Below, piece by piece: positions 877 to 12,968 of a DNA stretch of 64,000 bases. Origin of the DNA: Vicinamibacteria bacterium (lineage in GTDB: Bacteria > Acidobacteriota > Vicinamibacteria > Marinacidobacterales > Marinacidobacteraceae); contig OY729431.1 of the NCBI GenBank assembly GCA_963422395.1, positions 1,344,001-1,408,000 on the forward strand. The letters are read 5' to 3'. Position 1 is the first letter of the stretch. Each line of letters opens with the position of its first letter. The translations under genes and the position numbers were made by a program. The notes beneath the pieces were generated by a model that worked only from the letters and a program-made list of their open reading frames with translations, ran no database searches and was not told the DNA's origin.

Positions 877-929
877 ACTCGCCGGAGCCGCCGAAGGTTG
901 CGGCGGCCTGTCCGATGGAGGTTTCCAGG

Positions 930-2966
930 ATGCATGAGCGAACGATCAGGATTTGGGGTGGAGCGGCGCTCCTCGCGCTCGTTACGGCGGCGGCGGCGTC
1001 CGCTGCGGACGGAAAGCGCCCGCTGCAGCTCGCCGACTATCTCTCGTGGGAGGCGGTGCGGAGTCCGCAGATCGCTCCCGACGGCGGGAGCGTGGTGTAC
1101 GAGCGGCGCTTCGTGGACTCCATGAAGGACCGCTGGAAGACCGAACTCTGGGTCATCGGCAGCGACGGATCGAGGAACCGTTTCCTCACCGAGGGCGGCG
1201 GCCCGCGCTGGTCTCCCGACGGGACCCGGATCGCCTTCCTGCGCGACGGCCAGATCTTCGTGCGCTGGATGGATGCCGAGGGCGCGGAAAGCCAGCTGAC
1301 CCGGCTTCTGAATCCTCCTTCGCAGATCCAGTGGGCGCCCGACAGCGGTTCGATCGCCTTCCGGGCGGTGGTACCTCCCGGACCCGAGGACACCTGGGCC
1401 ATCGAGATGCCGAAACCGCCCGAGGGCGCCGCCTGGACGAAACCGCCGCGGATCGTCACCCGGCTGAACTACCGGCGTGACGGGTCGGGGTATGCCCCCG
1501 CCGGATTCCGGCACCTCTTCCTGGTGAGTGCCGACGGCGGCACGCCGCGTCAGCTGACGAGCGGCGGCTTCCACCACGACGGACCGCGTTTCGCCGGTGA
1601 CGGGGCGGCGATCGTGTTCACCTCGCTCCGGACTCCGGACGCGGAACACGCCTGGCGCGAGTCCGAGATCTACCGGGTCGAGGTGGCGACCGGGGAGATC
1701 ACTGCGCTGACCGATCGACGCGGCCCCGATTCCGGACCGGTCCCTTCCCCCGACGGGAGCATGATCGCCTACACCGGGATGGACTACACCAGGGACACCT
1801 ATCGGGAGGAATCTCTCACGGTGATGCGCGCCGACGGCGGCGATCCGCGCGTGGTGGCCAACGAGATGGGCCGGCGGCCGGGAATCGTGGGTTGGGCCAG
1901 CGACGGGAGCGGGGTCTATTTCAACGCTCAGGTGCGGGGCACCAGCAATCTCTATTTCGCGCCGCTCGACGGTGAAGTCCGGCCCGTTACTTCCGGGAAT
2001 CACATCCTTTCGGTGGCGACGGTGAGCGGCGATGGAACCGCGGTGGGAGTGGTGAGCGCCTACCACACTCCGGGAAATCTGGTCGCCTTCGAGGTGGATT
2101 CCCCGGAGCGGCTCACAACGCTGCATGTGACGAACGCATCGGTGCTCGCCGGAGTGCGTTTCGGTGAGGTCGAGGAGATCTGGTACGAATCCTCGGACGG
2201 CCTCGACATCCAGGGCTGGATCGTGAAACCGCCGGACTTCGACCCCTCCTCGAAGTATCCGCTGATCCTCCGCATCCACGGCGGCCCCCATGCGATGTAC
2301 AACAGCGGTTTCGACTTCAAGAACCAGGACCACGCGGCCAACGGGTATGTCCTTCTCTACACGAATCCGCGCGGCAGCAGCGGCTACGGGAGCGCCTTCG
2401 GCAACGAGATCGCGAACGCTTATCCCGGCAAGGACCTCGACGACCTGATGGCAGGTGTGGACGAGGTCTTGTCGCGCGGCTACATAGACGAGCGAAACCT
2501 GTTCGTGTACGGCGGCAGCGGCGGTGGAGTGCTGACCTCCTGGATCGTCGGAAACACCGACCGGTTCACTGCGGCAGTGGCGAAAGCGCCGGTGACGAAC
2601 TGGTTGAGCTTCGTGGGAACCACCGACGGCGCGAGCTGGTACCGGAACTTCGAGAAGCTGCCCTGGGAGGATCCCGAGGAGCACCTCCGCCGATCGACGC
2701 TGATGTATGTGGGGAATGTCACCACGCCGACGATGCTGATGACCGGCGAGCGCGATCTGCGCACTCCGATGGAGCAGACCGAGCAGTACTACCGGGCGCT
2801 CAAGATGCGGAAGATTCCGACGGCGATGGTCCGGCTCACCGACGGTTGGCACAGCCGCAGCCTGCCCCCGACGAACTTCTTGCGGGTGCAGCTGCTGCTG
2901 CGAAAGTGGTTCGACCGCTTCCGGGTCACCGAAGAGACGACCACCGACGAGTCGGGCGGCCGGTGA
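930..2966 (+). CDS. S9 family peptidase (dipeptidyl aminopeptidase/acylaminoacyl peptidase) with beta-propeller
   Basis: GGAGG at 917-921 before ATG 930; signal peptide; PD40-like repeats (WSPDG); HGGP, GGSGGG nucleophile, D and H of the triad (ERDLR, GWH). Confidence 0.93.
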   Translation: MHERTIRIWGGAALLALVTAAAASAADGKRPLQLADYLSWEAVRSPQIAPDGGSVVYERRFVDSMKDRWKTELWVIGSDGSRNRFLTEGGGPRWSPDGTRIAFLRDGQIFVRWMDAEGAESQLTRLLNPPSQIQWAPDSGSIAFRAVVPPGPEDTWAIEMPKPPEGAAWTKPPRIVTRLNYRRDGSGYAPAGFRHLFLVSADGGTPRQLTSGGFHHDGPRFAGDGAAIVFTSLRTPDAEHAWRESEIYRVEVATGEITALTDRRGPDSGPVPSPDGSMIAYTGMDYTRDTYREESLTVMRADGGDPRVVANEMGRRPGIVGWASDGSGVYFNAQVRGTSNLYFAPLDGEVRPVTSGNHILSVATVSGDGTAVGVVSAYHTPGNLVAFEVDSPERLTTLHVTNASVLAGVRFGEVEEIWYESSDGLDIQGWIVKPPDFDPSSKYPLILRIHGGPHAMYNSGFDFKNQDHAANGYVLLYTNPRGSSGYGSAFGNEIANAYPGKDLDDLMAGVDEVLSRGYIDERNLFVYGGSGGGVLTSWIVGNTDRFTAAVAKAPVTNWLSFVGTTDGASWYRNFEKLPWEDPEEHLRRSTLMYVGNVTTPTMLMTGERDLRTPMEQTEQYYRALKMRKIPTAMVRLTDGWHSRSLPPTNFLRVQLLLRKWFDRFRVTEETTTDESGGR

Positions 2967-3123: not shown

Positions 3124-6100
3124 TCAACGGATATGCCGGTTTCGGTTTTTCTTCCAGGCCCGAAGCCGCGGCAGCTCGTGGCGATCCACCAGGAGTACAT
3201 CTCGTCGACGAGCCAAACGCCTGGCACTCGCAGTGAAGCCAGCAGCGTTCGTCACGACCATCGGTATCGGTTCTCCTCGAATCTCGTAATGGGGAATCGC
3301 GCGCAGAACTTCCTCGACCGCGGCGCGGCCGCAGCTGGCGTCGGGTTGTGTGTGCTTGCACTGAAGGATGATCGTGTGCTGGTCGTCGCCGATGCGCGAT
3401 ATCGCGATACCGTCTGCGCCTCGATCTCGGCTCCGAGGAGTCCGCCGGGTGTCGTAGCCGGCCTCGGCGAGCTGCTGCAGTGCCCAGATTTCGAAAGCTT
3501 CCGGTTCCTGCAGATCGATGTCGGCTCGGGCTTCCCGCGTTTCCGAATCTTCGCCGCCGAGCGCCATCGTCATGGTGCTGTGGTAGAGATCGTTCATGTC
3601 TCCTTCGGTCGCAGTGGTGGGCGCGAGTACGCGGCGGTTCCTCTCTCGCTTCCGCTCCATCAGGCTGTCGAGCTTCAGATCGAAGCTGTAATCGCCGAAG
3701 CGCGGATGCCGGGCCAGCGGCAGATAGACATGCACGAGTCGGCGCTGTCCGATCCGGAACACTCGGTCGGTGCATTGATCCTCCACGGCCGGATTCCACC
3801 ACCGGGTAAGATGGATCACATGGTTCGCGGCCGTCAGGGTCAAGCCGACACCGCCGGCGCGGGGTGAGAGGACCATCACATCGAATCCCTGGCGATTCTG
3901 GAAGGCATCGACGCGCGCCTTGCGCGTCCGCCCGGAGACGGCGCCGTTGACGACCAGAACATCGTTGGGAAGTCGAAAGCGCTGCCGGAGTGCCACGATC
4001 AAGAAGTCTTGCATCTCGCGCAATTCGACGAAGAGCAGCACCTTCTCGTGAAGATTCGCGATCTTGTCCAGGATCGAAAAGGTTTCGGAGAGCCTCGCCG
4101 ATTCCTGGATGTATCGGTCCGGATCGGAGTCGGCCGGCGCGGCGGGATGCAGCGAAATGCTTCTCAGATCTTGGAGGGATTGGAGCATTCTCCCGCCTTG
4201 CCGGCTTTGCAGCACGATCTGCTCGTATCGCTCGGCTTGGAGCGGGGGCATCTCAACGACGTGTCGGTGTATGTGCTTGTCCGGCAAGCCGGAGAGATGG
4301 TCTTCCTTGAGGCGCCGCAGCATCAGTACCGGGGGAGACTCCACCGTCAATTCGCGATGCAGTTCCGCAAGCGCCGACTGGCCGTCCTCGTCGTCTGCTT
4401 CATAGCGCCGGCTGAAGTCTTTCAGGGTCGCGAATTTGCCGGGCTCGATCCGGTCGAGCATCGACCATATGTCGGCCGGTCGGTTCTCTACCGGGGTGCC
4501 GGTCATCAATAGGGCGAAATCCACATTCATCGCGAGTGCCGCGTCGGTGATGCGGGCGCTCGGATTCTTGATCTTCTGTGCTTCGTCGAAGACCGCAGCA
4601 CGCCAGTGGACGCGGCCGAAGCTGTGTTGGTAGTCGCGCAGCGTCTCATAGGTGGTCAGCACCCAATCCGCTTCCGACAGCGCCTCGACTTTCAGTTTCG
4701 GTAGCGGCGGATCGGCTCTGAGTTCGTTGCCCGCCTCATTCGCTCCGGTTCTGAGTTGCCGGAGGCCTGCACCATGCGCCTCGACGGCTCGGCCGAGTCC
4801 GGCTTCGGACAAGTGCTGGTCGTGCTCGTCCCGCCAGTTGCGAAGCAATCCGGTCGGGGCGACTACGAGTAGCGGCCGGGGCGCGAGGCCCACGGTGAGG
4901 GCGTATGACTTCAGGCAGGAGAGGAACGCCAGCGCCTCCAAAGTCTTGCCCAGGCCCATGTCGTCGGCCAGCAGGACGCCCCAGCTTCCAGCGTCCCAGT
5001 GGGATCGCAGCCACGCGAGGCAGTCCTGCTGGTGCGGGAAGAGGGTGGTGCGGAGATTCGGGGCTGCGGCCGTTATGCCGGGCGTGCGCTTCCTGCGCTC
5101 GCGATGGAACTGAAGGGCTTCCAGGTTGTCGGCGACGAGCAGCACTCGATCGCTACCGTCCGGTCCGGCTCCTTTGCCGGGGCGAGGTCGTTCCCTGTCG
5201 GGCTTCGGTCGCGCCACCGGGGCCCTTCGGCGAACCAGTTCCTCGATGGCTTCGATGGCGGCCGGATCCGCGGGGATTTCGCTGTCGTCACCGACTCGGA
5301 CGGTCGGATCGCATCGCTCGACCGCCGTGCGGACTCTTTCGAGCAGATCCGGGAGGTCGTCGGATTCCAGGTGCACGATCTGTGAACCGATACGGAGTCC
5401 CAGTTTCTCGGGAGGGAGCCAGGGCTCCGCCGCCTGTTGGATCCACGGAAGCGGCTTTTCGATCCAGATGCCGATACCGCGCACCCGTTCGCTCAATCCG
5501 AGGTCGCTGAAGATACTGTCGACATCGATCTGCTCATCGCCGGCGCCGTCGAGCGCTCCGCGGAGGTATCCGGGGACATCCCGAAGGAAGTCGCGCCGCT
5601 CGCCGGCGGTGCCTGTCTGGGCGCGCCGGACGGAGCCGAGGAGCCGTTCGACTTCCGGCGTCAGCACGACATAGGCCCCACCTCCGGCCGCGTACCGGTG
5701 CTTCACCTGCGACAACCCCCGGAAACGCCGTGCGAACTCTTGCTGACGGGCGGAAGGCAGGGAGCGGGTGAAAACCTGTTCCTCGTCCTCCGCATCGGTG
5801 ATGCGCGTCTCCCGGCGGCCGACTATCGGATCGAAGTTCGGCTCGCCATCATCGTCCAGGAACGGGGCGAGTTCGAAACTCGACGCCACGACGATGTGCA
5901 ACGCCCGCAGCTTTCCATCGACGACAGCGTCCTCGGGAAGGATCTCCGCGATCCGTCCCCATTGGAGCATTCGGGTTTCGAGATCCGCGTTCTCCGCTCG
6001 TTGGAATCGGTCGATGGCATCGGTGATGGTGTACAGGGGGTCCAGCAGCAAGAAGTCGTCATCACCGACCCGCAGCCAGGCGCCCTGGCGGCGTGTGCCC

Positions 6101-6444
6101 AATACGCGCCGACCCTTGTTGCGGAATCCATAGTGGATATCGAAATTCGGGTCGTGGATCGCGCCGCTTGCGACGATCTCGAGTGCGTAGGGAACGGCGT
6201 CGGGAAGCTCGATGCGGCGCAGCTCGTCCTGCGTCAAACCGGCAACGCTCGGCCATGGGATCGACAGCGTGCGTCCCTCTTCGTGTTCGACGGCACTCCC
6301 GTCGTCACGGAGTCGAATCAGCGTGCCGGCACCCGAAGAATCGCTGGCGTGCGCAGTCCACTCGCTCACCGGTAGCGGCGGGTCGCTGCCCATTCGGACG
6401 GTCAAACCGCCCGGGGTCGGCTCGAACGCGAAGGATTTGGCCAT
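3124..6444 (-). other. zorD: ZorD moiety (probable ancestral zorD gene, internal ATG at 6444, 1106 aa)
   Basis: In-frame ATG (MAKSFAFEP) 5 nt after an out-of-frame TAG at 6450-6452; SNF2 + helicase C + Mrr-like domains. Confidence 0.75.
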
Positions 6445-8040
6445 CGGATCTACCAGTTGTGCGAGGGTTTTCGCCCGATCGGCCTGCGGCTTCTTGCCGA
6501 GGCTTTTCTCCGTCTCCGCCGCCTGAATTCGGGATATATGGTCAGATCGGGGTTTCCGTTGACTTCTCTCAGCTGGTCGGGGAAATACTCGGCACGATCG
6601 ACCTCGATGTCCATCTCGATTGTCCCGTAACCAATCCATGATCTGGTCCTGCCACCGGCCGGTGAGATTGCCGTCATGCCGTTGCGAAAAATCCTCGCCG
6701 GAGACCAGATCGAATCGAGAATACTCCTGTTCGTACAACTTGGGCGCAGCAGAATTTCCGTCGAGCCAGAATCGGCAGGTACCGTTGTGGCTCCATTCCG
6801 CGACGGTCATCACTCCGGGAAGCTGCAGCAAGAGCACCGATTGATTCCCCTGAGCACCCTTTAGCATGGCGGTCGTTTCGAACTCGTCGGAGACCGCATT
6901 CTTCCGCTGTAGGATGGATTTAGCGTGCCGGCCGAGCGCGAAGCAGATGTCCGGGTCCAAGGGCAGGAATGCCCGCCAGAAGGCTTCCCGATAGCGCCAA
7001 TGTCGGTCGAGCGCGGTCTCCTGGACGAGCAGGAAGAACTGTTCGAGCGCGCGTTCGTTGAGCCACCGGATCACCACCCGCCGAACTGGATCCGGAACCC
7101 TTGGCCACCTGCTCTTCCCGGATGGCAGGCGCGGGTCACCGAAGTGCCGCAGGAAGAAGGGTTGCAGTCGTTCCCTGATCTCAGGGTTCGGAGCCCTTTC
7201 GACGAAAGGACCGAGGAGCGCTTGCGCGATCTCCGATCGCACGGTCCGGTCGTCGAAACGCAACTGGCCGTCGCAGGTGAGGAGGATGAGCAGCCGATCG
7301 AGTGGACCGGACCCGAGGCAGTTGCCGCGGAGGAGCGACTCGGCGTCCGGAAGGTAGGCGCAGATGCCCGATTCCAGGAATCCGCAACGCGCGAATTCGG
7401 CGTCGAGTCCGGTCTGGCGAAGGGCTTTCTCCGGAGAGTCTGCCGCCGACACCAACTTCCGCACGAACTTCCGGGACCCGTCGGTATCCAGAATGCCCAA
7501 CTCCTGGAAGCGTTTGCGCCAGCGCTGCAGAGAGGGGGGAGGAGGCGATGAGCCGCCTTTCACGGCTTTTCGCAGCAGGCGGCACAGCCCGTCGAAGGTC
7601 GGCAGACCGACGGGATAGACGCGGAGGAATTCGTGGAACAGGGGCAACACCGATCGAGTGCGGCGACCGGCAGCCAGCCAGCGGCGGCGGTATTCCGTCA
7701 CGACGGCGGGCTCCGCACCCAGCCAGCCTGCGGCTCCTGCCGCGGTGTTGCTGCCGCCGATGCGGTTTCCTTCTCGCTCCGGGTAGAACAGGACCCACGG
7801 CAATCGCCGCAAGTCGCGGGGCGCGAGCTGGGAGAGCGAGCGGTCGCGATGCCAGGACTCCGCCACTCGGCGATGCAACGCTTGCAGGTCGTAGGCCGCG
7901 GGGGTTTTCGGCTGGACGGCCTCCAACAGCTTTTCGATCCTGGCAGCCGCTTTCTTCGTCTTTCGCGGCTCGTAATCGCGCTCGATCTTCTGGAAGCCGA
8001 TCCAGCGTGCCAGGGATTGCTTCAGGGACGGCACATTCAT
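3124..8040 (-). CDS. zorCD: Fused Zorya ZorC (EH-signature) + ZorD (SNF2 helicase, Mrr-like nuclease), 1638 aa
   Basis: N-half has FGDPR, RWRYREAFW, AEWSHNG; C-half has LADDMGLGKT, DEAQ, TGTPVEN, WWNPAVEDQCTDRVFRIGQ and DRGADGI..LQCKH; lies directly after zorAB. Confidence 0.88.
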   Translation of the reverse strand: MNVPSLKQSLARWIGFQKIERDYEPRKTKKAAARIEKLLEAVQPKTPAAYDLQALHRRVAESWHRDRSLSQLAPRDLRRLPWVLFYPEREGNRIGGSNTAAGAAGWLGAEPAVVTEYRRRWLAAGRRTRSVLPLFHEFLRVYPVGLPTFDGLCRLLRKAVKGGSSPPPPSLQRWRKRFQELGILDTDGSRKFVRKLVSAADSPEKALRQTGLDAEFARCGFLESGICAYLPDAESLLRGNCLGSGPLDRLLILLTCDGQLRFDDRTVRSEIAQALLGPFVERAPNPEIRERLQPFFLRHFGDPRLPSGKSRWPRVPDPVRRVVIRWLNERALEQFFLLVQETALDRHWRYREAFWRAFLPLDPDICFALGRHAKSILQRKNAVSDEFETTAMLKGAQGNQSVLLLQLPGVMTVAEWSHNGTCRFWLDGNSAAPKLYEQEYSRFDLVSGEDFSQRHDGNLTGRWQDQIMDWLRDNRDGHRGRSCRVFPRPAERSQRKPRSDHISRIQAAETEKSLGKKPQADRAKTLAQLVDPMAKSFAFEPTPGGLTVRMGSDPPLPVSEWTAHASDSSGAGTLIRLRDDGSAVEHEEGRTLSIPWPSVAGLTQDELRRIELPDAVPYALEIVASGAIHDPNFDIHYGFRNKGRRVLGTRRQGAWLRVGDDDFLLLDPLYTITDAIDRFQRAENADLETRMLQWGRIAEILPEDAVVDGKLRALHIVVASSFELAPFLDDDGEPNFDPIVGRRETRITDAEDEEQVFTRSLPSARQQEFARRFRGLSQVKHRYAAGGGAYVVLTPEVERLLGSVRRAQTGTAGERRDFLRDVPGYLRGALDGAGDEQIDVDSIFSDLGLSERVRGIGIWIEKPLPWIQQAAEPWLPPEKLGLRIGSQIVHLESDDLPDLLERVRTAVERCDPTVRVGDDSEIPADPAAIEAIEELVRRRAPVARPKPDRERPRPGKGAGPDGSDRVLLVADNLEALQFHRERRKRTPGITAAAPNLRTTLFPHQQDCLAWLRSHWDAGSWGVLLADDMGLGKTLEALAFLSCLKSYALTVGLAPRPLLVVAPTGLLRNWRDEHDQHLSEAGLGRAVEAHGAGLRQLRTGANEAGNELRADPPLPKLKVEALSEADWVLTTYETLRDYQHSFGRVHWRAAVFDEAQKIKNPSARITDAALAMNVDFALLMTGTPVENRPADIWSMLDRIEPGKFATLKDFSRRYEADDEDGQSALAELHRELTVESPPVLMLRRLKEDHLSGLPDKHIHRHVVEMPPLQAERYEQIVLQSRQGGRMLQSLQDLRSISLHPAAPADSDPDRYIQESARLSETFSILDKIANLHEKVLLFVELREMQDFLIVALRQRFRLPNDVLVVNGAVSGRTRKARVDAFQNRQGFDVMVLSPRAGGVGLTLTAANHVIHLTRWWNPAVEDQCTDRVFRIGQRRLVHVYLPLARHPRFGDYSFDLKLDSLMERKRERNRRVLAPTTATEGDMNDLYHSTMTMALGGEDSETREARADIDLQEPEAFEIWALQQLAEAGYDTRRTPRSRDRGADGIAISRIGDDQHTIILQCKHTQPDASCGRAAVEEVLRAIPHYEIRGEPIPMVVTNAAGFTASARRLARRRDVLLVDRHELPRLRAWKKNRNRHIR
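6450..8040 (-). other. zorC: ZorC moiety (probable ancestral zorC with frameshift near 6618)
   Basis: EH-signature motifs; after WQDQIMDWLRDN the shifted frame reads DIEVDRAEYFP... and stops at 6450. Confidence 0.7.
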
Positions 8041-8891
8041 GGCGACCCTTCACCGACTCGTTCGCGAATCTCGATTTGGACTTCGGAGTCCTGCTGCAGT
8101 AACCCCTTCGGGGGTTCGAGGAGGAATCGGAGATCGATACGCCGATTGTCGTCGGCTCGTTCGGAATAGCGAGTCGCCGGCCGGGTATAGCCGTGGCCGC
8201 TGGTGCTCAAAATGGGATAGCCGTGCGTGTTCCGCAGCTGTTCGACCCCGGGCTCGCACGCGACGATCATCCGATGTACGGTAGCGGCCCGCATCGACGA
8301 CAATTCGAGATTGTCCAGGAAACGGTTTCCCGCGGCGACCGGTACCTCGTCGGTGTGCCCTTCGATCAGCAAGGTCTCGAGGAGCCAGGGGAACCGTCGT
8401 TCCCTGCAGGAGTACGCGGTCGGATCGGCGGGCGGCTGGCAGTACGGCAGCGCCCCATCAGCTGCTTCCACCGGAGGCTCCCCAGCGCCGCTCGGGCGCG
8501 AGGAGACATAGCAGGGCAAGACCTCGGCGATGGCGTTCGCCAGCCGCCCCACATGGACCAGGTGGCCGGCCACCGGCAGTTCGCTGCCGGAAGGGAAATT
8601 GATGGAGTTCTCCGACAGCCGCAACACGCCCTGCTCGGGAAAGACCTCGACGCGGATGCCGGCGTCTTCGAGCCGGCTGGCGATCGCCGCCAGGATATGG
8701 CCGCGCGTTTCGTCGGCAGCGGTCAGTTCTTCGGTGACGGTGTCCTGTTCCTCGGTGACTTTGGCGAGCTGATACGCGAAGACGGCCAGCATGATGATGA
8801 AAACGAAGATCAGTGCCGAGACGAGATCGCTGACGCTGGCGAGGTAGCTCTGGCCGGTGTCCGGCGCGGGTCTCGTATTGCCGGTCGTCAC
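8037..8891 (-). CDS. zorB: Zorya ZorB (MotB/OmpA-like peptidoglycan-binding protein)
   Basis: GTG overlaps the zorA stop; TM helix with conserved Asp (SVSDLVSALIFVFIIML); IEGHTD, NLELSSMRA, NRRIDLRF. Confidence 0.92.
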   Translation of the reverse strand: MTTGNTRPAPDTGQSYLASVSDLVSALIFVFIIMLAVFAYQLAKVTEEQDTVTEELTAADETRGHILAAIASRLEDAGIRVEVFPEQGVLRLSENSINFPSGSELPVAGHLVHVGRLANAIAEVLPCYVSSRPSGAGEPPVEAADGALPYCQPPADPTAYSCRERRFPWLLETLLIEGHTDEVPVAAGNRFLDNLELSSMRAATVHRMIVACEPGVEQLRNTHGYPILSTSGHGYTRPATRYSERADDNRRIDLRFLLEPPKGLLQQDSEVQIEIRERVGEGSP

Positions 8892-10645
8892 CTCGATCTC
8901 CCGAGATGCTCGGTCAGGTCCTCGATCGACTGGTTGAGTTCTCCGGTGGCTCCGGCCAGAGACTGGATGGTCTTCGAGGTCGTATGGTCCAGCTCGTTGG
9001 CGAACCGTTTCACCTGTTCGCAATACCTCGCCAAGCCTTCATCGAATTGCCGAAAGACCTCGGCGAGCGAGGCATCCATGTTCTCGAACCGTTCCTGGTA
9101 GCGACCCCAGGTTTCGGCGACCGACTGCTGATGCTTTTCGAGCCTATCGACCAAGGTACCGACCTGGCCGGCGAGATCGCTCGTCCGTTCGAGCGTGCCG
9201 GCGGTCCGGTTGCTCGCGGTGCGGATGTCGTTCGCGGCCCGCCCGATGGGTTCCGCGGCTGCTGCGATCTGCCGGTGGGCCGATTCCATGGCGTCGCGCA
9301 ATCCGTCGAGCCTATCCACGAACTTCGTCATTCCGCCCAGCACCTGTTCGCTCTGCCGGGTGGACCGATCGAGGCTCTCAGCGGAAGCCTTCAGACCTTG
9401 CATCGATCCCGAGATCTGCTTGGCAGCCTCGACGCCGGTTCGGGCCAGATCCTGCGCCGCCGCCCCGACGGCTTCGCGCAACTCGACTGAAGCGGCCGTG
9501 CTGGAGGCGGCCATCTGTTCCGCCAGCTGTTCGGAAGCTCCCGTGATCTTGCGGGTGACTTCCCCGAGCGCCTGTTGGAGCGTCTCGGTCACGGTGTTCG
9601 CACCAGCATCCATCGATGTTCTGACCGCCGTGAGAACCGAATCGAGCGTCGTGCGAATGTCCTGCTGCGCCTGTGTCAGTCCGGCGGCGGAGTCCTTCAG
9701 CGTTCGGTTCAGGTCGGTGACGATCGCAGCCATCTCCTCGAACTGCGATCCGGTCCGCTCCTGCATGGTTTCGGTGAGCCGGCCGAGTGCCTGTTCGATC
9801 ATATGGCTGGTTTCGTTCGACCGGTCCGCGCGGAGTCCTTCGACCGCTTCCACCAGGCGCTCCAATTGGGGTGACAGGCGGCCGGCGATCTTCTCGTCGA
9901 GCGCCTTTTCCAGGGAGAAGATCAACTCGGTGTTGAAGCGTTCGAGTTGCGTTACCGCGCGCTTCGCCTGTTCGAGCTGGTCTAGCGCGACTCCCTCCGA
10001 AGTGACCCGTACCAGCCGGGATTCGATGGCGCTGACCCAATCGTCCAAGCTGCGATGGAGCTTTCGCGAGAAGCGGCGAAGGATCAACACGAAGACGATC
10101 GAGCAGCCGATTCCGACGATGGATGTCACAAATGCCAGGGAGGCACCGTCGAGGAGCTGCTGCAGGGAGGAGATCATCTCCTCCGGATCGTCGGACGACA
10201 GACCGGAACTCGCCGCGCCGACCCCGAAGGCGAGCCCGAGGAAGGTGCCGAGGATGCCGCCACCGGTCAGCAGGTTCGGCATCGATTCGTACCAACGAAA
10301 GTCGATTTTGGGAACGATGATCGTGGCGTCGTTCAGATACCACGACACCTCGCCGGTATTGCGGATCGGGTCGTTGGATCCGGGCGCCGGACGCACCAGG
10401 GTCTCCACGAATGCCTTCCACGGCAGACCGAAAACCTCCTCGGTGTGATCGCTGTACCGTTCGAACTCGCTGACGAATTGTTTTTCCCCATGGATGTCGA
10501 CTAATACGGCTTTCAGCCCCTGGAGTGATTTGAGCAACCTATGAGATTTGTGGATTAGCGTCCAAGCGGACCAGAAAGTGAATACGACGATGCCTCCGCA
10601 CCACCAGTAGACGAAAGAATCGCCGAGGACGAAGTCGGAGATCAT
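8888..10645 (-). CDS. zorA: Zorya ZorA (MotA/TolQ/ExbB-like channel with long helical cytoplasmic tail)
   Basis: PNLLTGGGILGTFLGL and LAFVTSIVGI helices followed by ~400 aa of Ala/Gln-rich helical tail; upstream of zorB. Confidence 0.92.
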   Translation of the reverse strand: MISDFVLGDSFVYWWCGGIVVFTFWSAWTLIHKSHRLLKSLQGLKAVLVDIHGEKQFVSEFERYSDHTEEVFGLPWKAFVETLVRPAPGSNDPIRNTGEVSWYLNDATIIVPKIDFRWYESMPNLLTGGGILGTFLGLAFGVGAASSGLSSDDPEEMISSLQQLLDGASLAFVTSIVGIGCSIVFVLILRRFSRKLHRSLDDWVSAIESRLVRVTSEGVALDQLEQAKRAVTQLERFNTELIFSLEKALDEKIAGRLSPQLERLVEAVEGLRADRSNETSHMIEQALGRLTETMQERTGSQFEEMAAIVTDLNRTLKDSAAGLTQAQQDIRTTLDSVLTAVRTSMDAGANTVTETLQQALGEVTRKITGASEQLAEQMAASSTAASVELREAVGAAAQDLARTGVEAAKQISGSMQGLKASAESLDRSTRQSEQVLGGMTKFVDRLDGLRDAMESAHRQIAAAAEPIGRAANDIRTASNRTAGTLERTSDLAGQVGTLVDRLEKHQQSVAETWGRYQERFENMDASLAEVFRQFDEGLARYCEQVKRFANELDHTTSKTIQSLAGATGELNQSIEDLTEHLGRSR

Positions 10646-10997
10646 CGCCGCACCCGGGGAATTCGACCGGAACTCGGGCCCGTGATGGCCGCCGAAATGC
10701 GAGGGTGCCGCCTGCCGCCGGTAAGAGAGGACCTCGGCCGGTCGGTCGAGAGCGGGAAGTGGTGAACCGCCGTCATCGTGATCGATGGTACCGGTATCCC
10801 TCGAAAACAGGATCCCCTGGAACCCTGCGGACCCGCCCCGAGTTCGGCCTGGGGCAGCGGCTTGGGAAGCGGCCTCCCGCAGCGGTCATCGAGACAGCAG
10901 GAGAGCACTTCGACGAAGTGCGGCCGACGACTCGAATCCCGCCACGAGTTCTACCTTTCGCAAGTGGCCGTTGCCACGGGAAAGCGCGGGCCGCACA

Positions 10998-12968
10998 ATG
11001 CGCACCATGAAACGCCTGCCTTTTCCGCCCTTCCGGGTTCTGCCTGGCTTCCTGCCGGTCTTTCTGGTTCTGCTCGCCGCCTTCGCGGTCGCCGCCTCCG
11101 CCTTCGCCCGGCCCCAGAAACCGGTGCTCCACGGGAAGCACTGGATGGCGATCACCGGCAAGCCCCTCGGGGCCACCGCCGGGGCGATGATCTTCGGCCA
11201 GGGAGGGAACGCGGTGGACGCCGCCTGCGCCATGCTGGGCGCGACGGCGACGATGTTCGACGCCCTGAGCTGGGGTGGAGAGACCCAGGCGCTGCTCTGG
11301 CACCCCGAAGAGAAGAGAGTGATCGGGATCAACGCCCTCGGAGCGGCGCCCAGCGGGGCCACCCCGGAGTTCTTCCGAGGGCAGGGGATGGACTACCCGC
11401 CCGCCCTCGGCCCGCTGGCGGCGGTGACCCCGGGGACGCCCGGCGGGCTCATGACGATGCTCGCCGAATACGGCACGATGTCGCTCGCCCAGGTGCTCGC
11501 TCCGGCGATCCAGATGGCCGACGGCTACCCCATCGAAGCCTCCGCCGCCCGGGCCATCCAGCGGGGAGCGGAGCGGATCGCCGAATGGCCCTACTCGCGC
11601 CGCACCCTGCTCCCGCACCGGGAGGACGGCGAAGACCGCGGCAGGACGGGGGACCTCGCCTCCGAGCGCGGGAACTACTGGGACCGCGACGATCCTGCCT
11701 ACCGGGATTTCTCGGCGGGCGGGCCTGCTCCCGGCGAGATCTTCCGCCAGCCCGAACTCGCCGAGACGCTTCGCAAGCTGGTGGATGCCGAAGCCGAAGC
11801 GCTCGCCGCGGGCAAGGACCGCAAGCAGGCGATCCAGGCCGCCTACGACCGCTTCTACGAGGGAGACATCGCCGAGGAGTTCGTCCGCGGCGTTCAGGAA
11901 CAGGGCGGCCTCATCACCACCGAGGACCTCGCCAACTGGGAGGTTCACATCGAGGAGCCGGTTTCCACGGCCTACAAGGGGATCGAGGTGTACAAGCTCA
12001 CCCACTGGGTGCAGGGGCCGGTGCTGCTCCAGGCCCTGAACATCCTCGAGCCCTTCGATCTGAAGGGAATGGGCTACAACAGCTCCCGCTATATCCACAC
12101 CCTGTATCAGGCGATCAGTCTCGCCTTCGCCGACCGTGACTTCTACTACGGTGATCCTTACTTCCCTCCCGAGGAACCGATCGTCGGGCTGCTGTCGAAG
12201 GACTACGCGAGAAAGCGCGCCGAAAGCATCCTCTCGGACCGTAACGACCCGGCCATCGGCCCGGGGGATCCCTACCCGTTCCAGGGCGGGGAAAACCCCT
12301 TTTCCGATTATCTCGACCGCTTCTCCGGCACCGCCGGGCGGCCCACGACCGAGGAAGAGCGGCAGGAGTTCCTCGATGGATTCCTCGCCGGCACCACCTC
12401 GATCCAGGCTGCCGATGCCGAGGGCTGGGTGGTTTCGATCACGCCGAGCGGCGGTTGGCTGCCGGCGGTGCTCGCCGGGGAGACGGGGATCGGCCTCAGC
12501 CAGCGGATGCAGAGTTTCGTGCTCGATCCGGCGATGAATCCCTTCAATGTGCTGGAACCGGGGAAGCGTCCCCGCGCCACCCTCACTCCGAGCCTGGCGG
12601 TCAAGGACGGTGAGCCGTTCCTGTCCTTCGCGGTCCAGGGGGGAGACAGCCAGGATCAGAATCTCCTGCAGTTCTTCCTGAATGTGGTGGAGTTCGGCAT
12701 GGATGTGCAAGAAGCCGCCGAGGCCGCCAACTTCAACAGCTATCAGCTGCGCAGCTCCTTCGGCGCCCACGAATCGGAGCCCGGCTCCCTGCTGCTGAAC
12801 GCCGAGGTTCCCGCGTGGGTCCGCGACGAGCTGATCGGGATGGGTTATTCCCTGCGCTTCGCGCCGCGGACCTCCGGACCGATCAACGCCATCTGGTTCG
12901 ACCGCGAGCACGGAACCTTCTGGGGTGGTTCGAGCCACCACGGCGACGACTACGGAGTGGCCTGGTGA
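10998..12968 (+). CDS. ggt: Gamma-glutamyltransferase family protein (secreted)
   Basis: Signal peptide; GGNAVDAA; catalytic Thr in TTSIQAAD; PGKRPRATLTP; GGDSQDQ. Confidence 0.92.
   Translation: MRTMKRLPFPPFRVLPGFLPVFLVLLAAFAVAASAFARPQKPVLHGKHWMAITGKPLGATAGAMIFGQGGNAVDAACAMLGATATMFDALSWGGETQALLWHPEEKRVIGINALGAAPSGATPEFFRGQGMDYPPALGPLAAVTPGTPGGLMTMLAEYGTMSLAQVLAPAIQMADGYPIEASAARAIQRGAERIAEWPYSRRTLLPHREDGEDRGRTGDLASERGNYWDRDDPAYRDFSAGGPAPGEIFRQPELAETLRKLVDAEAEALAAGKDRKQAIQAAYDRFYEGDIAEEFVRGVQEQGGLITTEDLANWEVHIEEPVSTAYKGIEVYKLTHWVQGPVLLQALNILEPFDLKGMGYNSSRYIHTLYQAISLAFADRDFYYGDPYFPPEEPIVGLLSKDYARKRAESILSDRNDPAIGPGDPYPFQGGENPFSDYLDRFSGTAGRPTTEEERQEFLDGFLAGTTSIQAADAEGWVVSITPSGGWLPAVLAGETGIGLSQRMQSFVLDPAMNPFNVLEPGKRPRATLTPSLAVKDGEPFLSFAVQGGDSQDQNLLQFFLNVVEFGMDVQEAAEAANFNSYQLRSSFGAHESEPGSLLLNAEVPAWVRDELIGMGYSLRFAPRTSGPINAIWFDREHGTFWGGSSHHGDDYGVAW

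Follow-up and report, generated by a model that had tools for sequence, protein, structure and literature searches.

The stretch of DNA analysed, 64,000 nucleotides long and referred to below as the window, contains, on the minus strand, an ordinary anti-phage operon of the type I Zorya class with four genes, zorA-zorB-zorC-zorD. The four genes lie on the same strand in this order, the operon shows the sequence-level features of a type I Zorya system (ZorA, ZorB, EH-signature ZorC, SNF2 + Mrr ZorD), and it has housekeeping neighbours on both sides. In the assembly, zorC and zorD are joined in one open reading frame (ORF). The features of the locus were as follows:

Positions 915..2966, plus strand: S9 peptidase gene, flanking housekeeping neighbour of the Zorya operon.
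Positions 3124..8040, minus strand: fused ORF as assembled, 1638 aa.
Positions 3124..6444, minus strand: zorD, 1106 aa from the ATG at 6444-6442, stop codon included in the coordinates.
Positions 6619..8040, minus strand: zorC core, residues 1-474, ending ...WQDQIMDWLRDN, with matches to PADLOC ZorC (PDLC00622) and Pfam EH_Signature.
Positions 8037..9023, minus strand: zorB, with a match to PADLOC ZorB1 (PDLC00610).
Positions 8888..10645, minus strand: zorA, with a longest ORF of 585 aa and a match to PADLOC ZorA1 (PDLC00605).
Positions 10785..12968, plus strand: gamma-glutamyltranspeptidase gene, flanking housekeeping neighbour of the Zorya operon.

The identification of the locus as type I Zorya in the initial annotation was right, and ZorA1, ZorB1, ZorC and ZorD were all matched in PADLOC. 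ZorA, in type I systems a MotA/ExbB-like membrane protein whose cytoplasmic tail is long, matched ZorA1 with an E-value of 1.3e-50 and 20 further ZorA models, and its tail gave in Pfam weak coiled-coil-type matches only, each of them below its cut-off. ZorB, the MotB-like component with a peptidoglycan-binding domain of OmpA type, matched ZorB1 over residues 50-315 (E 3.8e-63) and fell just below the Pfam cut-off for OmpA (27.0 bits; cut-off 27.2). The true start of zorB probably lies downstream of 9023, given that residues 1-49 fall outside the family match. The stop codon of zorB and the ATG of zorC overlap by 4 nt. Within the 1638-aa ORF, the ZorC profile was matched by residues 6-474 (profile positions 4-454 of 462; E 8e-98) and EH_Signature (PF15611), of which the genome has one gene copy, by residues 30-467 (136.3 bits, cut-off 27.5; E 2.4e-39). 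Two PADLOC ZorD models followed, PDLC00634 at residues 542-1515 (E 5.8e-287) and PDLC00631 at residues 556-1626 (profile positions 23-1059 of 1071), and in Pfam the ZorD part contained SNF2-rel_dom (1003-1279; E 9.7e-49), Helicase_C (1323-1431; E 3e-12) and Mrr_cat (1512-1625; E 2.1e-17); these three domains and EH_Signature all scored over their Pfam cut-offs. ORF, PADLOC and Pfam thus agreed with the original description of an EH-signature ZorC running in frame into an SNF2-Mrr ZorD.

The ZorC core ends in ...WLRDN, where N474 is encoded by bases 6621-6619. After this residue the fused frame reads RDGHRGRSCRVFP..., and the neighbouring frame reads ...DIEVDRAEYFPDQLRE... and runs to a TAG at 6452-6450. 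A search with the ZorC part retrieved 261 proteins of 267-851 aa (E ≤ 0.001); among the best 120 of these 261 homologues the closest was 63% identical, and the identity of the zorC core to the best homologues was 63-66%. The 57 homologues whose ends were compared share the ending WLR.NTG.EI.RAEYFP, and a 38-sequence alignment (A1) shows hardly any variation in the T, G, R and Y positions that follow N474. As this conserved segment is read out of frame, the fused frame destroys the conserved end of ZorC. From the Asn codon to the conserved D/x-R-A-E-Y codons there are 15 nt in homologues vs. 19 nt in the assembly, which indicates that the assembly has a surplus of four bases (net +1). The following features were distinguished at the junction:

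Positions 6614..6617, minus strand: four surplus bases, TCTC on the plus strand and GAGA on the gene strand, which create the fusion and occur in the assembly only.
Positions 6535..6613, minus strand: segment A, the conserved ZorC end (..DIEVDRAEYFPDQLRE..), in frame with the core only without the four bases and gapless to 20 homologues.
Positions 6445..6534, minus strand: segment B, which the read-supported zorC reads out of frame as an Arg-rich tail; its zorD frame resembles the linker of long-tailed ZorC.
Positions 6450..6452, minus strand: TAG stop of the read-supported zorC, its bases unchanged in contigs of the public runs X2, X4 and X6.
Positions 6427..6619, minus strand: polymorphic block, with a second allele of about 507 nt instead of about 189 (+318 nt, 106 codons).

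When the four bases were removed by script, zorC became a gene of 528 codons for amino acids (528 aa) that aligned without gaps to 20 homologues through WLRDN, 10 further residues and EYFP, and stopped at the TAG at 6452-6450. A plausible ZorC ending in the shifted frame, with a stop at 6450-6452 located 5 nt before the ATG at 6444, had been pointed out in the initial annotation and was recovered here; the single net +1 indel that it placed near 6618 was also correctly sited, and consists of the four-base surplus at 6614-6617, seen relative both to read-derived contigs and to homologues. With the inserted bases, the hexamer ATCGAG occurs twice, the new copy lying 12 nt upstream of the one already there. 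The tail of the read-supported ZorC is 54 aa long and basic, rich in arginine, with six Arg codons in a row (AGG CGG CGG AGA CGG AGA).

The start of zorD was placed at the ATG at 6444-6442, which corresponds to M533 of the fused ORF and lies 5 nt past the TAG. With the ZorC profile, 55 related loci were fetched, and zorD was found downstream in 54 of them (none in L021). The tblastn alignment to the ZorD of the window started at M533 in 27 of these 54 loci, 26 of which have a start codon there. The register of the PADLOC ZorD profile fits this start as well, residue 556 of the ORF being ZorD position 24, aligned to profile position 23.

Six public sequencing runs contain the stretch, and four of them (X1, X2, X4 and X6, from three studies) were examined over positions 5600-7600. 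All run data are Logan contigs, in which rare variants are dropped, and X2-X5 are possibly the source of the assembly and possibly other material. In X2 (record 9; 249 nt, 6397-6649; depth 27.8), X4 (record 14; 249 nt; depth 16.9) and X6 (record 22; 169 nt; depth 5.2) the four bases 6614-6617 were missing and the contigs showed no other difference from the window. The X1 contig (record 3; depth 8.26) was more distant: over 1303 nt it showed 27 further differences, and it reached the same net change of -4 by losing one base each at 6609, 6613, 6617 and 6619, with substitutions in addition. A net -4 over 6614-6617 was therefore found in 4/4 runs from the three studies, the depth with the change being equal to the total depth in each, and no Logan contig retaining the four bases was found in any of the four runs examined. 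Over 2001 nt, the window did not differ from the main X2 allele apart from the four bases. Thus zorC and zorD, which form one ORF in the assembly, are separate genes in the contigs of the four runs and in 54/54 related loci.

The contigs also revealed that the junction is polymorphic. Two 567-nt contigs (X2 record 10 and X4 record 15; depths 13.4 and 12.1) join 6434 to 6620 and match the window at 6620-6649 and 6397-6434, and a 95-letter loose end was present at 6620 in X6. In X2 the flanks have a depth of 41, which the two alleles (27.8 + 13.4) use up, so that none is left for a third allele. The additional length of the long allele (+318 nt) was calculated from the lengths of the contigs and their overlaps of 30 nt. 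Long-tailed loci have tails of about 120-130 aa and spacers of about 110-120 nt; the 318 additional nucleotides fit this architecture, which indicates that the sequenced populations hold short-tail and long-tail forms of zorC that diverge at 6620. The four surplus bases lie 3 nt from this point of divergence. An exact metagenome scan for the 30 bases 6620-6649 gave no matches. ZorC with and without the long tail coexist in the same samples, and the short tail is the majority form in this clade. Tails could be measured in 115 of the best 120 homologues (five without a locatable motif were left out) and, sorted by tail length alone, 76 were under 60 aa and 39 were of 100 aa or more. An HMM test for a conserved C-terminal domain was discarded as too strict, as it flagged 24/120 proteins and missed 15/39 of the long-tailed ones. 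In X1, an extra A is present behind 6413, which would end zorD, read from the conserved ATG, after about 14 codons.

To our knowledge, no family of natural ZorC-ZorD fusion proteins has been described. Other ZorC-ZorD fusions, which the initial annotation proposed to look for, were not found: zorC and zorD were in one ORF in 0/54 related loci, and two protein searches returned only the window's own protein. These searches compared residues 1-540 with proteins of 900-2867 aa and the 38-sequence ZorC profile with proteins of 1431-4085 aa; in each, the 8000 candidates sharing most words were scored, which makes both weak blanks. An 801-nt junction query against 41 genomes (the genome itself and 40 relatives) matched its own genome only, plus one 55-nt stretch at chance level (E 5.7e-4). 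No natural ZorC-ZorD fusion was found in the available passages of the Zorya literature, supplements aside (PMC11946911, PMC11890865); in these passages the words "fused" and "fusion" refer to tags and cloning (PMC11946911), and "fused" to a tag, plus one reference title (PMC11890865).

The linker between N474 and M533 proved to be composite. It had been described as about 57 aa read out of frame; this held for its first 28 residues (475-502, bases 6618-6535) but not for the last 30 (503-532, bases 6534-6445), which are coding-like in the fused frame. The GC content by codon position of segment A (bases 6612-6535) in the fused frame was 0.69/0.65/0.27, not coding-like when compared with the zorC core (0.66/0.47/0.77) and zorD (0.71/0.46/0.76), which indicates that segment A codes in the other frame, in agreement with homology. 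Segment B in the zorD frame was coding-like (0.70/0.47/0.70). When scored with an HMM built from 38 long tails of ZorC, segment B gave 7.2 bits in the zorD frame, a value reached by 0/1000 shuffles, vs. 3.5 bits in the read-supported frame, reached by 14/1000 shuffles; in pairwise comparison, ..SLGKKPQADRAKTLAQLV of segment B resembles ..SLGAQPQSPRTETVALLV of the homologue P0014. These weak but consistent signals suggest that segment B may be what remains of the linker of an ancestor with a long tail, in which case a deletion of the ZorC C-terminal domain, the stop and the spacer would have put the relic linker beside the ATG of zorD. That the linker is free of stops over 58 codons is unremarkable in DNA of 68% G+C, since in the two off-frames of the ORF the mean open runs were 39 and 90 codons, and runs of 59 codons or more occurred 7 and 11 times.

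The single ORF of 1638 aa is due to the four extra bases just behind the ZorC core: with them, reading leaves the conserved ZorC end for the frame of zorD, in which by chance no stop occurs over the 58 codons before the zorD start. In DNA from the same organism, which lacks the four bases, zorC encodes 528 aa and ends at the TAG at 6452-6450, followed 5 nt on by zorD from its conserved ATG. The fusion is not supported as a biological feature, as it depends on four bases that are absent from all the contigs covering the site. Whatever the origin of these bases, the fused protein would scramble a conserved segment of ZorC, and it bears no apparent sign of selection.

As regards the origin of the four bases, their absence from every run, three of which have contigs otherwise identical to the window, argues for a consensus or polishing error in the assembly, and so does the position of the site next to the allele boundary, where consensus building from mixed samples tends to fail. 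We infer such an error, rather than a private mutation, with a probability of about 0.6. An insertion of four bases outside a homopolymer or tandem repeat is, however, atypical of sequencing errors; the assembly is otherwise clean, as the 2-kb comparison with X2 attests, and real indels do occur in the junction, such as the extra base of X1 behind 6413. A genome-wide indel problem in the assembly was ruled out, since the reading frames of rpoB, rpoC and dnaE are all uninterrupted (1430, 1468 and 1236 aa). The same points speak for a real mutation private to the sequenced clone, namely a frameshift lesion in zorC that reads into zorD. Its product would be the ZorC core without its conserved end joined to ZorD, that is, a damaged or neutral allele and no adaptation. 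Besides the atypical insertion type and the accuracy of the assembly elsewhere (both against X2 and in rpoB, rpoC and dnaE), this explanation can draw on the variation of the junction among strains, in tail length and in the X1 extra base, and on the second ATCGAG copy, which a templated insertion might produce. We nevertheless regard a private mutation as possible but doubtful: the four bases appear in 0/4 runs from three studies, in spite of three of these having contigs otherwise identical to the window, two other alleles already fill the flank depth of X2 (27.8 + 13.4 vs. 41), and a site 3 nt from an allele boundary is just where a mixed-sample consensus error is to be expected. The variation of the junction, together with the base that cuts zorD in X1, is a hint that selection on the operon has been relaxed.

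The initial annotation had offered two explanations for the fusion, a sequencing error and a recently born single-chain effector. The absence of the four bases in 4/4 runs favours an error or a private lesion, and the idea of a new effector is not supported, as contigs from all four runs lack the extra base and none of the 54 related loci is fused. A functional, selected ZorC-ZorD chain is accordingly very unlikely. The ORF is open, the final 30 residues of the linker seem to keep the ancestral frame of the ZorC linker, so that only 28 are scrambled, and the ratio of about 1:1:1 for ZorAB:ZorC:ZorD suggested for E. coli in PMC11946911 means that a fusion is not absurd in principle; yet such a chain is absent from all read-derived contigs, from 54/54 related loci and from the results of two protein searches, it scrambles a conserved segment of ZorC, and nothing suggests that it has spread or that its sequence has changed since the event. 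A more elaborate form of the same idea has as slim a chance: the four bases would be real, an earlier deletion of the C-terminal domain would have put the old linker (6534-6445) in frame, and the chain of ZorC core, relic linker and ZorD would work with ZorAB. If true, a working single chain would show a fused Zorya effector as it comes into being and offer a natural test of ZorC and ZorD as one unit. Programmed ribosomal frameshifting or transcriptional slippage, giving both separate and fused products, can be given almost no weight. The closeness of the two frames and the run of six Arg codons in the zorC tail are all that could be adduced for it, against which assembly and contigs already differ at the DNA level, no canonical slippery heptamer was seen by eye in the junction sequence, and no relative has a comparable arrangement.

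The annotation of this genome should be corrected so that zorC (528 aa) and zorD (1106 aa) are separate genes, or else zorC should be marked as frameshifted. The 1638-aa protein stands alone in the protein databases and is not to be read as a new domain architecture. The coexisting tail alleles of ZorC may interest Zorya specialists, given that ZorC of E. coli needs its C-terminal domain.

In E. coli, as described in PMC11946911, phage entry is sensed by the proton-driven motor ZorAB, which recruits the DNA-binding ZorC and the autoinhibited nuclease ZorD; protection against phages needs all four components (PMC11946911). By analogy, we assume that ZorAB of the present locus would likewise sense phage entry and recruit ZorC and ZorD (PMC11946911). 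The operon resembles EcZorI in its four components, their order and their location on a single strand, in the EH-signature ZorC and in the SNF2-type helicase of ZorD, here accompanied by an Mrr-type nuclease. Differences are found in individual proteins. The tail of EcZorA reaches residue 729 (PMC11946911), whereas ZorA has 585 aa here. The ZorC of this locus is very divergent from EcZorC: the clade profile matches the solved chain 8r68_A (E 2.8e-5) over core positions 262-416 only, and phmmer with the homologue P0009 gave no matches among solved structures. The EH signature is recognised here by profile match; in EcZorC the Glu/His pair is E400/H443. EcZorC has a C-terminal globular domain that, from what the same text reports, is needed for DNA binding and defence (PMC11946911), whereas the read-supported ZorC has only the 54-aa basic tail; the long tails of this ZorC clade may correspond to that domain.

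The closest parallels were the loci of soil and sediment metagenome-assembled genomes (Vicinamibacterales L003, Latescibacterota L004-L007, Bryobacterales L019 and others), in which ZorC is 54-63% identical over residues 1-474. In contrast to the assembled window, all these loci have a stop between zorC and zorD, and many of them carry a ZorC tail of at least 100 aa and a spacer of about 110-120 nt. As in the window, ZorD lies directly downstream and has the conserved N-terminus M..(F/L).F.PT..GL.V.

Two alleles of the zorC tail, the part of the gene that follows the conserved core of the protein (residues 1-474), were found side by side over window positions 6427-6620 in the contigs of three public sequencing runs (X2, X4, and X6). 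The short allele was the one carried by the window itself, whereas the second was longer by approximately 318 nt (106 codons), the two diverging exactly at position 6620. Depths of the tail alleles in run X2 were 27.8 and 13.4. Another patch with two alleles, located in the interior of zorD (6117-6239), displayed depths of 27.6 and 12.9.

Tail length also varied among ZorC homologues. In the best 120 of 261 homologues, five lacked the W..W..N motif and were left out of the counts; a tail shorter than 60 aa after this motif was present in the majority of the remaining sequences (76 of 115), and a tail of at least 100 aa was present in 39 of the 115. PMC11946911 describes a C-terminal globular domain as being required by ZorC of the Escherichia coli type I Zorya system.

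The stretch at 6445-6534, immediately upstream of the conserved zorD ATG, presented a coding-like GC content by codon position when read in the zorD frame (0.70, 0.47, and 0.70 for the first, second, and third positions, respectively). In this same frame it was similar to the linker of long-tailed ZorC proteins (7.2 bits; none of 1000 shuffles scored as high). Judged from its sequence, this stretch looks like a relic left when the C-terminal domain was deleted.

The divergent strain of run X1, represented by one contig at depth 8.26, carried an additional A behind 6413, which would cut off zorD translated from the conserved ATG after about 14 codons, as well as an in-frame 6-nt insertion in zorC behind 7543. 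Among the related loci, L046 and L047, on two contigs of one Vicinamibacterales MAG, were identical fragments encoding just the C-terminal 76 residues of the ZorC core and, downstream of these, the N-terminal 160 residues of ZorD, and a third locus of this MAG (L021) encoded a ZorC core (residues 1-400) without zorD. These three loci resemble copies of Zorya that have undergone rearrangement or decay.

Upstream in the operon lies the following gene:

8888-10645, minus strand: zorA, 585 aa at most

Because the longest zorB ORF overlaps zorA by 136 nt, the start of zorB is probably located further downstream than in that ORF. The match of ZorA profiles to the window zorA began at about profile position 56, and the product, with its maximum of 585 aa, does not reach the length of E. 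coli ZorA, in which the tail extends to residue 729 (PMC11946911).
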